NCBI GenBank assembly: GCA_963811165.1
Contig: CAWEQH010000008.1
Location: 96,001-160,000, forward strand
DNA: 64,000 nt
Reading direction: 5' to 3'
DNA from: an uncultured Nitrospiraceae bacterium
GTDB taxonomy: Bacteria > Nitrospirota > Thermodesulfovibrionia > Thermodesulfovibrionales > UBA6898
A program made the translations under genes and the position numbers. The notes beneath the pieces are model-generated. The model was not told the DNA's origin. It did no database searches and worked only from the letters and a program-made list of their open reading frames with translations. This document shows positions 22,437 through 63,170 of the stretch, piece after piece (the first letter of the stretch is position 1; each line of letters opens with the position of its first letter).

Positions 22437-23476
22437 ATGAATCTGAAGAAAAAAGGCTTTCAACTACCTGACAAAATCAGGTTTGATGAAGAGACGCTGA
22501 GCAGTACTTATGGAAAGCTTGTCGTGGAGCCGTTGGAGCGCGGCTTCGGTACCACTATGGGAAATTCACTCAGGAGAGTGCTGCTCTCATCGCTTGAAGG
22601 CGCCGCGATCACAGCCGTAAAGATCGCGGGTGCGCTTCATGAGTTTTCGTACGATTAACGGGGTTAAGGAAGATGTCATAAACATAATCCTGAATCTTAA
22701 GAAGCTGAGGATTAAATTTCACGGAGAAGGCAACAAGATCGGGACCTTTAATGTGAAAGGGCCGGGACATGTAACCGGCGCGGACCTTCAGGTTGATTCG
22801 ACGATCGAGGTCCTGAATCCCGAAACACCGATTGCGACACTCGATAAGGGCGGCCAATTTCGACGCCGAGGTCTATATCAGGAAAGGCAAGGGATATATC
22901 TCCTCTGAACTGAACAAGGAAGACCTGCCTGTCGGGATGATCGCCGTCGACGCGGCCTTCACCCCTCTTAGAAAGGTGAATTTCTGGGTCGAAAAGACGA
23001 GGGTCGGCAGGGAGACGGACTATGACAGGCTGATCATGGAGATCTGGACGGATGGGAGCATCTCTCCCGAGAAGGCGGTATCTCAGGCGGCCTCGATAGT
23101 CATCGAGCATATGGACCTGTTTATATTCGAGGAGGAAGACGAAGACATGCCGGTGTCCGATGAAGTCGGGGTCGGCCATTCCGACAGTGTCGGGTTCTCT
23201 TCGTCAAACGATAACCTCCTAAAGAACGTGGACGAACTCGAACTTTCTGTCAGGTCCTTCAACTGCCTGAAAAACGCCAATATAAAGACGATCATTGAGC
23301 TTGTTCAGAAGACCGAGCCCGAGATGCTTAAAACCAAGAATTTCGGCAGAAAGTCACTGAACGAGATAAAGGAGATACTCGGCAGGATGGGGCTCCACCT
23401 CGGCATGAAGATAGACGTGGACAACCTCGACAAAGAAGCCATGCAAAGCGGAGGTATCAAGCAAAATGCGTCATAA
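22437..23476 (+). CDS. rpoA: RNA polymerase alpha subunit (indels near 22650 and 22850)
   Basis: [39 protein letters not shown]. Confidence 0.96.
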
Positions 23477-23963
23477 AGTAGATGGAAGATTATTCGGCAG
23501 GCCGGCCAATCAGAGGAAGGCGCTTTTGCGGGGTATCGTTACCGCCCTGTTCGAACAGCAGAGGATAGAGACGACCGTGGCGAAGGCGAAGGAGGCCAAG
23601 AGGATTGCGGAGAGGATGATCACCTTCGGGATAAAGGGAGACCTCCATTCGAAGCGCCAGGTGCTTGCATATGTCACCTGCAGGGATATAGCCTCAAAAC
23701 TCTTCAGTGAGATTGCCCCTCGTTTTCAGGGCAGAAATGGCGGCTACCTGAGGATAGTGCATACCAGGCAGCGGTTAAAAGACTCCGCGCCGATGGCGAT
23801 ACTCGAGTTTATCGATTATGAGAACATAAAGCAGGCCAAAGGGAAAGCGAAGAAAGAAGAGAAGCCCGAAAAGGCCGAAAAGAAGACCGAGAAGAAGACT
23901 GAGAAAAAACCCGAAAAAGCCCAAAAGAAGGCTGAGAAAAAGGCTGAGAAGGCATCGGCATAA
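23466..23963 (+). CDS. rplQ: 50S ribosomal protein L17 with K/E/A-rich tail
   Basis: [21 protein letters not shown]. Confidence 0.97.
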
Positions 23964-24103
23964 TGAGCGATTTTCTGATATTACTCGCCGTTGTCGCAGC
24001 GTGGATAATACTGCAGACGGTAGTGCTGCCAAGGATCGGCGTGCCGACCTGAGCAGTGCCTACGGTCCCGGGTAAGACCGACAAAAAATGTAAACGCCAT
24101 TAG
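23963..24103 (+). CDS. candidate 46-aa single-TM selenoprotein (UGA at 24050-24052); 29 aa if UGA is a stop
   Basis: TAATG overlap with rplQ stop; [51 protein letters not shown]-like hairpin after the UGA. Confidence 0.65.
24050..24082 (+). promoter_or_regulatory. putative bacterial SECIS element
   Basis: TGA + 10 nt + CGGTC-CCGGGTAA-GACCG; CGGT at positions 14-17 and GGT at 22-24 as in E. coli fdhF SECIS. Confidence 0.6.
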
Positions 24104-24130
24104 AGGTTCATCTTAGGCGGTGTAATAATC

Positions 24131-24157
24131 AAAGGGCTCTGTGAGGAGCCTTTTTTT
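24131..24157 (+). terminator. intrinsic terminator of ribosomal superoperon
   Basis: AAAGGGCTC-TGTGAG-GAGCC followed by T7. Confidence 0.8.
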
Positions 24158-24270
24158 GTTTTAATTTTTTATCCCGAACTTCTGTTGAATTACACCCCCT
24201 GTAACATGTTTCTTCCCGTTCATATCATTCACTTCTTTTTTTCTTGCAAGGGTTCGTCACTTTCCTTACT

Positions 24271-24311
24271 AAAAAAAGGCCGAACTGCGGAGGTATTACC
24301 GCAGTTCGGCC
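24271..24311 (-). terminator. intrinsic terminator
   Basis: perfect 13-bp stem GGCCGAACTGCGG/CCGCAGTTCGGCC, 8-nt loop, T7 on the minus strand. Confidence 0.85.
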
Positions 24312-24465
24312 CATAGATCAAGCAGTATCCGGCTGGTTCCATTCCCTCCCCTCCTAAGGAGGTCTTTCCTTGCCGGTCCACTGCCCTCGGGTGAGAATTG
24401 CCGCTTACCTTCACCCTGATTTACGTCAAGAACCCTAAAATATCCGGGCCCGCCTTATGCTCTTA
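24271..24465 (-). ncRNA. putative ~195-nt small RNA of unknown class
   Basis: own TTGACA-N17-TATCGT promoter (24499-24471) and terminator, no contained gene, 8 GGA motifs, end-to-end pairing possible. Confidence 0.55.
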
Positions 24466-24613
24466 CCCTAACGATACTCCCCAGCCGGAGGGATGTCAAT
24501 TAGGTAATTTCGGTTAATAGGAAGGCTAAAGCAGGTGATTTATGAAGAGGTTCAGCCACCGTTGTTGCCCTCAGTACTTCCGCATTGAGCTTCGTTTCGA
24601 CGAGCAAGGAAAG

Positions 24614-25195
24614 TTAACGAGCCTTTCTTTCGAAGCGTTCCAGGGAATAAAACATCGCCCCCGCCACGAGTACCGCAACGGCTATCACGATCCAGTGGTT
24701 TACCCCCAGGAGCCCGGGTAAGGTCGCAGTTCCCATACCCGATGACATGTAAAAATTTCCCAGGGCAGGATAGACAACCGCAAATAGCAGGGAACCTGCA
24801 ATCAGACCCAACATTGTGACCAAGGCGTCAATTCTGCCGCTTCCGAGGGCCGCGACAGCTGTGCCCGGACAATATCCCGCCACAAGATAGCCCAGCCCAA
24901 AGAGGGCCCCACCGGTAAGCTGCGGCCAGAAATAGGTGGGGACTATCCATACCTTGCTCATATCGAGAAATTTCTGGTCCCCCAGCAGATAAAGACCACT
25001 GGATGCTACGAGTATGGCCGTAAACATCGCCTTCGGCACGGCAAAATCCCTGAGATAAAAGACGCCCGTGAGCTTGTGGGGGTTGCCGAGCCCTCCTCTT
25101 TCCAGAAACAGACCAAAGAAGAACCCTACGATAAGTGCCACGATGAGGCCGGCACCTTCACCGAACAAACCATATTCATAAAGAGGAGCGGTCAT
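24614..25195 (-). CDS. YeeE/YedE (sulfur/thiosulfate transport family) membrane protein
   Basis: FGLFLERGG, GGALFGLG..VAGYCPGT. Confidence 0.85.
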   Translation of the reverse strand: MTAPLYEYGLFGEGAGLIVALIVGFFFGLFLERGGLGNPHKLTGVFYLRDFAVPKAMFTAILVASSGLYLLGDQKFLDMSKVWIVPTYFWPQLTGGALFGLGYLVAGYCPGTAVAALGSGRIDALVTMLGLIAGSLLFAVVYPALGNFYMSSGMGTATLPGLLGVNHWIVIAVAVLVAGAMFYSLERFERKAR

Positions 25196-25701
25196 GACCA
25201 AAGCCTCCTGAAGATCGCGGCAAATAGAAAGCCGCTTATGAACATTGATGTCACAAATACCCATCCCCCTACCGCTAACTGTGCGCCTCCGGTAAGGGCG
25301 ACTCCGCTTGTGCATCCCCGCGCAAGCCTGCTGGCAAAACCCATCAGAATCCCGCCCCCAAAGGCTGTCAATAGCCTTGTAGTGCTGCTCATGCCGGCTG
25401 CCTTATCGAATGTAAGCCGAAAATTCCGGCTGAGAAGAGCGCCTGTGAGGGCCCCGACCAAAAGGCCGAGGAGCTCGAAAACAATCCAGTCCTTTAGGGG
25501 AGAGCCGGCGCCCAGATAGCGTGAAAAGTATGTAAGGCTTCCCGCATACTCCGGATTTATATTTTTCGTGGCTATCGCAGAGACTATTGAAAAAGCGCTC
25601 GATGCGCCGAGACCTTTTCCCATAATGTAAAACGAGGCGAGAAGGGTCAATCCAAGTCCGATGCCGGCAACGTAGGGAGACCAGAAACTATTTTTTCCCA
25701 T
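25192..25701 (-). CDS. YeeE/YedE family membrane protein
   Basis: WSPYVAG, GLGAS, GFASRLARGCTSG. Confidence 0.85.
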   Translation of the reverse strand: MGKNSFWSPYVAGIGLGLTLLASFYIMGKGLGASSAFSIVSAIATKNINPEYAGSLTYFSRYLGAGSPLKDWIVFELLGLLVGALTGALLSRNFRLTFDKAAGMSSTTRLLTAFGGGILMGFASRLARGCTSGVALTGGAQLAVGGWVFVTSMFISGFLFAAIFRRLWS

Positions 25702-62040: not shown

Positions 62041-63170
62041 GCTTATCTCAACTGAAATTTATCGATAAGACCTCCGGCAACAAGGGTAGCTTCATCCCAG
62101 TGGGAGCGGGGCCTCAGATCCGGCCGGCATGGGTCACGGGCATTATCAAGGCCGGTCCCGGCGTGGCCTACCGGGTGTCCACTGATATTACAGGGACGGA
62201 TCTTTGGGGGCATTTTAAGTGCAGGGTTAGTGCCTTCAGGAATAACTATACGGTCAGGCCCGGCCTGTATGCTGCCGGAAATCCTGACAGCAACTCGGAT
62301 GTCCTCATAAGCGCCAATTATAAGCTCAGTTTCGATCACCTGAGACGTGAACTAAAGGGTCTTCATGTCTGGATCATCGTCCTTGATACCAGGGGTATAA
62401 ACGTCTGGTGCGCGGCCGGTAAGGGGACCTTCGGGACGGACGAACTCATAAAACAGATCAATGCGGCAAAATTGGATGGGGTGGTAGATCACAAGAGGAT
62501 CATCGTTCCCCAGCTTGGGGCGCCTGGGGTCAGTGCCCATAAAGTGAGAAAGGCGACGGGATTCAGGGTCCATTACGGCCCCGTGTATGCCCGGGATGTA
62601 CGGGAGTTCATTGATGCCGGATATGAGGCTACCCCGGCGATGAGGACGGTAACGTTCAACGTTTTCGACAGGTTCGTGCTGACACCGATGGAAATAAATC
62701 CTGCCATGAAGAAGTATTATCCCTGGTACGCGCTTCTTATCCTTGGTATCTTCGGTCTTCGGCCCGCGGGGATCATTTTTGGGGACGCGTGGTCCGGCGG
62801 CTTGCCGTTTCTGATTCTGGGGCTCATCTCTCTTCTTGCCGGGGCATTTTTGACGCCGCTGGCGCTCCCCCTCATACCGTTTAGGTCTTTTGCGGTCAAA
62901 GGCTGGATCGCCGGCATGGTGTCCGTGATCCTCTCATCGCGGTACTCCTTCTTCGGTCACTCCAGCGTCCCACTTCGCTTCTTTACTTATCTTTTTTTCC
63001 CGCTGGCGAGCTCTTACGTAGCTCTGCAGTTTACGGGTTCCACCACGTTTACCGGCATGTCGGGCGTCAAGAAGGAACTAAGGATATCCATTCCCATTTA
63101 TATCGCTGGCGTTCTTATTTCACTGGCGCTCCTTGCGGTATATAAACTCGGAACGTGGAGGACTGTATGA
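62037..63170 (+). CDS. hgcA: mercury methylation corrinoid protein HgcA
   Basis: cap-helix NVWCAAGKG, ANYKLSFD, PQLGAPGV, C-terminal TM helices with FTGSTTFT. Confidence 0.96.
   Translation: MSLSQLKFIDKTSGNKGSFIPVGAGPQIRPAWVTGIIKAGPGVAYRVSTDITGTDLWGHFKCRVSAFRNNYTVRPGLYAAGNPDSNSDVLISANYKLSFDHLRRELKGLHVWIIVLDTRGINVWCAAGKGTFGTDELIKQINAAKLDGVVDHKRIIVPQLGAPGVSAHKVRKATGFRVHYGPVYARDVREFIDAGYEATPAMRTVTFNVFDRFVLTPMEINPAMKKYYPWYALLILGIFGLRPAGIIFGDAWSGGLPFLILGLISLLAGAFLTPLALPLIPFRSFAVKGWIAGMVSVILSSRYSFFGHSSVPLRFFTYLFFPLASSYVALQFTGSTTFTGMSGVKKELRISIPIYIAGVLISLALLAVYKLGTWRTV

Follow-up and report, generated by a model that had tools for sequence, protein, structure and literature searches.

The question raised by this locus is whether the TGA codon at positions 24050-24052 of a 64,000-nucleotide stretch of DNA from an uncultured Nitrospiraceae bacterium (contig CAWEQH010000008.1 of assembly GCA_963811165.1, positions 96,001 to 160,000; the whole stretch is called the window here, and positions are counted from its first letter) ends a short open reading frame (ORF) that follows the ribosomal protein gene rplQ, or is instead translated as selenocysteine (Sec, U). 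The evidence presented below indicates that 23963-24103 is very probably a genuine selenoprotein gene in which this TGA is read as Sec, and its product is predicted to be a single-pass membrane protein of 46 residues. An earlier reading by a model, made from the letters alone (the sequence-only reading), had proposed a membrane selenoprotein of 46 amino acids coupled to rplQ, and this core proposal is upheld here with a high degree of confidence. The features concerned are the following.

23466..23963, forward strand: rplQ, encoding ribosomal protein L17, the last annotated gene of the alpha operon (PF01196 Ribosomal_L17, E 5e-34).
23963..24103, forward strand: predicted selenoprotein gene, 46 codons including the TGA (Sec30), plus a TAG stop (from the ORF reading and conservation).
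23966..24037, forward strand: predicted transmembrane (TM) helix, residues 2-25 (AlphaFold2 on the cross-phylum alignment; insertion and topology putative).
24050..24052, forward strand: in-frame TGA, the predicted selenocysteine codon U30 (invariant in the order; Cys aligned with it in other phyla).
24053..24100, forward strand: predicted Lys-rich C-terminal tail AVPTVPGKTDKKCKRH, with the codon of the conserved Cys43 at 24089-24091 (conserved frame).
24063..24080, forward strand: hairpin resembling a selenocysteine insertion sequence (SECIS), CGGUC / CCGGGUAA / GACCG, a weak version of the hairpin that covaries in relatives (folding, covariation).
About 24131..24162, forward strand: intrinsic-terminator-like hairpin and T-run ending the operon, 3' of the small gene (terminator scan).

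The layout was re-read exactly as it had first been described. The ATG of the small gene at 23963 uses the last A of the rplQ TAA stop (23961-23963), giving TAATG, and the ORF runs through 29 codons to the TGA at 24050-24052, then through 16 sense codons (AVPTVPGKTDKKCKRH) to the TAG at 24101-24103. The hairpin CGGTC-CCGGGTAA-GACCG begins 10 nucleotides (nt) 3' of the TGA and was located at 24063-24080, in agreement with the spacing originally reported. The operon terminator had been claimed to lie only beyond the small gene; a terminator-like site was indeed found at 24131-24154, and it is the sole one on this strand. In the relatives a similar GC hairpin and T-run are present 3' of the final stop. 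Besides rplQ, the nearby rpoA was also confirmed by Pfam.

In a six-frame search the peptide was found in 55 of 61 related genomes, and every strong match contained one in-frame TGA at the same place, with the alignment continuing through it. A profile built from the sequences of 30 relatives and searched over 401 Nitrospirota genomes gave matches in 89 of the 118 Thermodesulfovibrionales genomes, that of the window counted (best E 1e-23), and in four of the 17 genomes elsewhere in the class. The matches in three of the 266 genomes of the remaining phylum are weak, partial and TGA-less and were taken as spurious. The assignment of the clade to Thermodesulfovibrionales (Nitrospirota) comes from exact matches of RplQ. 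All 93 true profile matches have the TGA; in three rows marked as stopless it lies just past the aligned part. Because the same ORF with its in-frame TGA recurs in so large a share of the order (89/118), the ORF is beyond chance. The gene is also present in contigs of two other studies, at about 95-99% and 90-95% identity, and these retain the TGA, so that the codon on which the sequence-only reading turned has support from other assemblies; one difference in these contigs, 24040 C>T, is synonymous (GGC to GGT). A chance ORF or a TGA introduced by assembly error, for which only the small size of the ORF speaks, is already refuted: protein identity across the order is 45-93% in the alignment, the profile matches reach E 1e-23, and the TGA occurs in independent contigs.

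The behaviour of the codon itself was followed in 65 distinct order-level sequences that were read directly (64 for counts requiring N-free sequence). The internal codon is TGA in all 65, whereas the terminal stop is mixed (TAG 22, TAA 22, TGA 20, with one tail running off its locus). Past the TGA no fewer than 13 codons stay open in 64/64, an in-frame stop within 12 codons occurring in none, and the next in-frame stop falls at codons 13-16 in 57 of the 64; in frame +2 a stop is found within 12 codons in 41/64. Insertions and deletions in the tail comprise whole codons in the 30-sequence alignment, with KKC retained, and Cys occurs in 62 of the 65 tails, mostly as KKC, the mean net charge of the tails being +3.1. 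W14, L17, Q18, P23, G26 and C/U30 are invariant within the order. A TGA that never drifts to TAA or TAG, together with a maintained downstream frame, does not behave like a stop. The sequence-only reading had made its case depend on homologues not ending in TAA or TAG at this site; none of the 65 does, and the downstream frame with its Cys-bearing, Lys-rich tail is conserved.

These counts bear directly on the explanation that the TGA is an ordinary stop, in which case only a 29-residue membrane peptide would be made and the downstream sequence would serve as an RNA element, such as a hairpin with a stabilising or regulatory role ahead of the terminator. This is very improbable, since an ordinary stop should drift as the terminal one does (22/22/20), yet TGA was found 65 times in 65; the frame stays open for at least 13 codons in every sequence, with in-frame indels and a conserved Cys, and the codon aligns with Cys in homologues that continue past the site. 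Consistent with an ordinary stop, proteins of 29 residues are already called at such loci (8 of the top 150 representatives in the profile search described below), the hairpin of the window is poor as a SECIS, and the truncated peptide is probably made anyway, Sec insertion being generally inefficient.

Homologues with Cys at the TGA site, which the sequence-only reading had named as a check, do exist, at 12 loci and in the 102 of the top 150 representatives that have Cx4C. The genome scan for Cys forms used the pattern [VI][FL]P[RK][LI]G[VI][PS]TC and gave 13 loci in Planctomycetota, Myxococcota-type metagenome-assembled genomes (MAGs), Desulfobacteraceae, Bacteroidota and Chloroflexota. Twelve of these encode proteins of 46-65 residues reading M.D..(TM helix)W..LQ.W.LPKLGIPT-C-MSGAC..., with Cys exactly at the site of the window's TGA. 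Across phyla P23, G26 and C30 are invariant in the alignment, and W14, L17 and T29 nearly so. A profile search of 1.84 billion representatives returned 2072 matches at E<=1e-3, 62 of them at E<=1e-10. Besides the Cx4C proteins, the top 150 of the 2072 include seven with the site Cys and no second Cys, among them P0069 and P0084, Cys forms that read ...GVPTCAVP... and share the sub-motif of the window, as well as 19 with Trp at the site and the eight that stop at residue 29. The 29-residue and Trp forms are what gene callers make of a TGA, the Trp forms being probably TGA translated by them under another code. At the position of Sec, several representatives (P0044, P0054, P0057, P0063, P0103, P0159 and others) were observed to have Trp, or else Arg, Gly or Ser, all four with codons one base from TGA. 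The second-best profile match, P0027 (986 aa), contains 11 repeats with ...KLGVPSCAVGP... and was judged to be the translation of a tandem DNA repeat, not a member of the family.

For the TGA forms, metagenome contigs were scanned with the pattern P-K-x-G-[IV]-x-T-TGA-ATG-N9-TGY. At least 120 stretches matched, and of 80 loci read, 79 encode a TM helix followed by ...T-U-M[SR]xxC and a polar tail, so that the family has at least 79 TGA members. Among the pattern matches L105 (Sphaerisporangium) and L187 were dropped as spurious. Taken together, the TGA scan and the Cys forms indicate a large family with either Sec or Cys at a single site, the pattern by which selenoproteins are usually recognised. 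The family motif is ...W..LQ...LP[KR][LMF]G[IV]xT-[C/U]-MSxxC..., with hundreds of members having Cys and many having TGA and a canonical SECIS. The protein of the window shares the N-terminal TM helix with W..LQ, followed by LPxxGxxT directly before the Cys/Sec, but lacks Cx4C and has U-x12-C instead (UAVPTVPGKTDKKC), the spacing within the order being 8-15 residues. The window's branch is a divergent sub-branch of the family. A search for close relatives of a Cys form gave 24, of which the four carrying names are all hypothetical proteins, and no informative names were found among the cluster members of the 29-residue and Trp forms.

The hairpin was compared with the published consensus for bacterial SECIS elements, which asks for (i) a loop of 3-9 nt on a stem of at least 4 bp, (ii) a G in the first two loop positions, (iii) a spacing of 16-37 nt and (iv) a minimum free energy of -7.5 kcal/mol or lower (PMC13188914). 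Hairpins with 4 bp or more were found in 61 of the 64 order sequences, and 52 have 5 bp or more. In this set of 61 there are 47 different 5' stem sequences; the loop begins 15-20 nt past the UGA in 49 and contains GG or GU in 52. The fold at +7 to +45 past the UGA is better than the mean of 200 synonymous recodings in 59/64 sequences (mean z -1.28; 38/64 below -1). When the sequences are aligned with a covariance model, 72.4% of the cells of the 5-bp helix are paired, compared with 52.8 +/- 1.8% in shuffled controls (0/500 shuffles as high), and compensatory changes are seen as 83 cells changed on both sides, against 33 +/- 4.8. Two rounds of realignment with the covariance model left the pairing counts unchanged, and for this reason the per-sequence hairpin calls and synonymous-recoding controls were also used.

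Of the 64 order sequences, 53 show features i-iii of this consensus and 44 show all four. The element of L017, with a 7-bp stem, a GGG loop 17 nt past the UGA and -10.7 kcal/mol, is canonical on the same measure. Agreement is close to complete in the UMSxxC forms, where 75 of the 76 analysed show features i-iii, typically with stems of 5-10 bp and (A)GGU, GGUC or GGA loops. A hairpin of -5 kcal/mol or lower is present in 63/76 UMSxxC forms and in only 1/12 Cys forms, of which eight still show the looser features i-iii. At one Cys-form locus, in a Chloroflexota MAG (L107:1501-1686), the hairpin CUGCUC-GGUU-GAGCAG lies 17 nt past the Cys codon and differs little from the SECIS of two Sec forms, L168 and L178 (CUGCUC-GGUC-GAGCAG); it has the appearance of a relic SECIS that persisted after Sec was recently replaced by Cys. 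Against Rfam, the interval 23000-25000 gave three chance-level matches only, none of them SECIS-related. The sequence-only reading had also drawn attention to a likeness between the window and fdhF of E. coli. The fdhF sequence UGA CAC GGC CCA UCG GUU GCA GGU was confirmed, and CGGU at 14-17 and GGU at 22-24 are common to the two; these positional coincidences are real, but the element of the window narrowly fails the published SECIS consensus.

The machinery for Sec insertion, which the proposal had required of this genome, is all present: selA (612 bits) and selB (375 bits), which are adjacent, selD (350 bits) and a tRNA-Sec with anticodon TCA. In-frame TGA codons followed by strong hairpins were found in selD (G000:C8:482523-483443, reverse strand), and in fdhA and a second fdh-like gene (G000:C10:104863-108021 and G000:C8:341068-341802, both forward strand), so the genome has at least three other selenoprotein genes. 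selA was found in 91 of the 93 genomes that contain the small gene. G015, the sole genome of family f1 without the gene in both samples, is also without selA and has non-coding sequence directly after rplQ. The co-occurrence with selA is a necessary-condition check only.

A number of observations weigh against the translation of this TGA as Sec. In the window itself the 71-nt region folds no more stably than shuffled sequence (z +1.41), the hairpin alone has about -5.8 kcal/mol, and features ii and iii of the consensus are absent, the first G of the loop CCGGGUAA standing at position 3 and the spacing being 15 nt. The nearest relatives (L002, L004-L008) likewise fail the strict criteria; L003, L009 and L010 pass, with a G at the place of the window's A and a C-G pair closing the loop instead of the C.A mismatch. 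The selD and fdhA elements in the same genome are far stronger, at -19 to -22 kcal/mol over 57 nt, and given the strength of these and of the second fdh-like element the one in the window is likely to be weak. Across the order the helix register is ambiguous, 69.8% of cells being still paired when the 3' strand is slid by +1, and RNAalifold detected no structure in the raw MAFFT alignment because the 3' strand is aligned there in two registers. Three of the 65 tails lack Cys, and no Cys orthologue was found inside the order. Two genomes, G282 and G353, each 98% complete, contain the gene with no selA found, and in family f10 selA is present in 14/14 genomes and the small gene in 0/14. Unrelated neighbours surround 28 of the 39 Sec-form metagenome loci, the context being heterogeneous, and in two RNA runs the only matches, which came from other organisms, fell on the Lys-rich repeat of rplQ and left the small gene uncovered, a result uninformative on transcription.

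Elements such as those of the window, L002 and L004-L008, which fail the strict criteria, could also be expected if the UGA were read through as Trp or Cys by a near-cognate tRNA, with a degenerate hairpin merely promoting the read-through. This explanation is very improbable: canonical elements occur elsewhere in the order, that of L017 for example, the site is Cys and not Trp in the homologues, selA accompanies the gene in 91 of 93 carriers, and the f1 genome without selA has lost the gene. On the selenoprotein reading, the recoding mechanism is the ordinary bacterial one, and the protein family is undescribed in the sources checked.

In keeping with such a mechanism, fdhF/fdhA and selD (fdhA and selD being present in this genome) resemble the small gene in that their in-frame UGA has a stem-loop with a G-rich apical loop within 15-25 nt on its 3' side, in having Cys homologues at the same site, as the wider family does, and in needing selA, selB, selC and selD. 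They differ in that the window encodes a 46-residue membrane microprotein and not a soluble enzyme, with a SECIS that fills most of the remaining coding sequence and is much weaker than the fdhA and selD elements.

With regard to novelty, the sequence-only reading knew of no characterised family, and none was matched here in Pfam, NCBIfam or a 2026 inventory of 119 prokaryotic selenoprotein families (PMC13188914). Pfam-A and NCBIfam release 20 gave no relevant match at E<=10 for the window peptide, 15 UMSxxC forms and 10 Cys forms; the hidden Markov model (HMM) matches obtained are weak and far below the cut-offs (best E 0.027); in most of them the hydrophobic N-terminal part aligns with ATP synthase subunit B/B'. 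The inventory includes small proteins such as KCU-star, UXX-star, TsoA (LULAxC) and dual-CXXC proteins, which like that of the window are short, have Sec paired with a nearby Cys and are usually truncated in databases, and it has no entry combining a TM helix with T-U-x4-C. The nearest cluster in the ESM Atlas is a 'hypothetical protein' with no Pfam family. BSepDB is built from these known selenoprotein families, and for the 'hypothetical DG/DW/DF' proteins of deep-Sep the corresponding NCBIfam models gave no match. Literature searches returned no description of the family; Haft & Tolstoy 2025 and Deng et al. 2026, the latter with unvalidated new candidates, might list it.

Two groups of small membrane proteins invite comparison on architecture. 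DUF6132 and the FeoB-associated Cys-rich membrane protein are, like the family, of some 50-70 residues with one or two TM helices and paired cysteines, and they too stand in thiol or sulfur gene clusters; they differ from it in their motifs and gave no HMM match. SELENOK and SELENOS of eukaryotes are small single-pass membrane proteins with a disordered, charged cytosolic tail and Sec near the C-terminus. Their likeness to the window protein is architectural only, with no Pfam match at E<=10, and their SECIS lies in the 3' untranslated region; in the window protein the Sec would lie at the membrane interface, with 16 residues following it.

AlphaFold2 predicted a helix at residues 2-25, with predicted local distance difference test (pLDDT) values of 92 and 88 in the first two ten-residue blocks, and a disordered tail, leaving no fold to search. 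In the mechanism proposed, ribosomes that have just terminated on rplQ would start again at the overlapping ATG, and Sec-tRNA(Sec) would be brought to the UGA by SelB bound to the hairpin at 24063-24080. Insertion of Sec is probably inefficient here, and a 29-residue truncated peptide would be expected as a by-product as a result. The helix would be inserted N-out/C-in because the tail is strongly basic, in line with the positive-inside rule. Sec30 would then lie at the cytoplasmic face of the membrane, with Cys43 in the flexible tail as its likely partner, and the two may form a selenenylsulfide or serve as a ligand pair for a metal or chalcogen.

The small gene is found directly after rplQ in 64 of 74 locus records of the relatives, and the translational coupling to rplQ proposed in the sequence-only reading would represent the common arrangement. 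At the junction TAATG or TAGTG occurs in 16/30, the genes otherwise overlapping or lying a few bases apart, with an ATGA overlap in L030. In family f11 (L017, L066, L072) the small gene follows tpiA-secG and precedes a GAF/sigma-54 activator; some f12 genomes and one genome outside the order (L081) have it elsewhere. Whether after rplQ or after tpiA-secG, it closes a housekeeping operon as the last small member, and genes of the Sec translocon occur in both host operons.

Among the 12 Cys forms a metallo-beta-lactamase-rhodanese fusion is encoded upstream in three (L095, L096, L107), two of which have TauE and a pyridine-nucleotide disulfide oxidoreductase downstream. In five related MAGs (L098-L102) a DsbD_TM-thioredoxin fusion follows downstream; a thioredoxin is encoded upstream in four of them, and in L100 no family was recognised upstream. 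DUF6132 adjoins the Cys-form gene in 3/12. In the Sec-form metagenome loci a sulfur or thiol-redox neighbour was found within 1.5 kb in 11/39, comprising rhodanese (two), a fusion of a coenzyme A-disulfide-reductase-like protein with rhodanese (three), thioredoxin-like proteins (two), and one each of Redoxin, DsbD_TM, metallo-beta-lactamase and OsmC. These neighbours are a hint and not a functional assignment, and the function is weakly grounded owing to the heterogeneous gene context.

Given the [C/U]x4C motif, and given that a minority of the family has rhodanese, thioredoxin or DsbD neighbours, the role may tentatively be sought in membrane-tethered thiol or selenol chemistry, either as a redox relay or in the handling of persulfide, selenide or metal. 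A fuller and more speculative proposal, rather unlikely as a whole, would see in the small gene a Sec-only, ribosomal-operon-coupled branch of a widespread family of membrane-anchored [U/C]x4C proteins of about 50 residues, a bacterial analogue of SELENOK/S that serves as a membrane-tethered selenol/thiol relay carrying persulfide, selenide or metal to partners such as thioredoxins, rhodanese fusions and CcdA/DsbD; a deliberately weak SECIS would, in Thermodesulfovibrionales, make its production selenium-dependent, and perhaps also what becomes of the rplQ transcript at its 3' end.

If confirmed, this would be a new and apparently common selenoprotein family, and the first family of single-pass membrane microproteins relative to the 119-family inventory. 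Such a family is invisible to standard gene callers, which truncate the protein after residue 29, translate the TGA as Trp or overlook the gene, and selenoproteomes would be under-counted among small ORFs. For annotation, the motif T-TGA-ATG-N9-TGY after a TM helix could be used and, in Thermodesulfovibrionales, the slot after rplQ. The placing of a Sec/Cys switch at the membrane interface, in a family some of whose genes adjoin those for rhodanese, thioredoxin or DsbD, would point to an unstudied membrane step in sulfur, selenium or thiol metabolism.

Some further features of the window and its relatives can be noted. Two half-size Sulf_transp (YeeE/YedE) ORFs at 24614-25315 and 25192-25701, both on the reverse strand, are convergent with the ribosomal operon, and a strong 14-bp terminator hairpin (24277-24312) is located at their 3' end. 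The association of the small gene with these transporters, suggested in the sequence-only reading, was rejected, as they are neighbours only within the genus of the window (4/74 records, two of which are the window itself). An hgcA gene is present at 62172-63140 on the forward strand (G000:C8:158172-159140; HgcA_corrinoid, 386.9 bits, over the cut-off), so the genome is likely that of a mercury methylator. The link to mercury raised in the sequence-only reading is not supported, as nothing ties hgcA to the small gene. According to Haft & Gwadz, most HgcA proteins have a CU motif upstream of the called start.

The C-terminal tail of rplQ (23830-23960) is long, Lys/Glu-rich and repetitive, and attracts unrelated RNA contigs; 12 bases at 23898 within it are absent from the contigs of the two other studies. 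Lastly, the RplQ of one relative (G041) is an exact match to a protein named for Dissulfurispira thermophila, a cultured organism available for testing.

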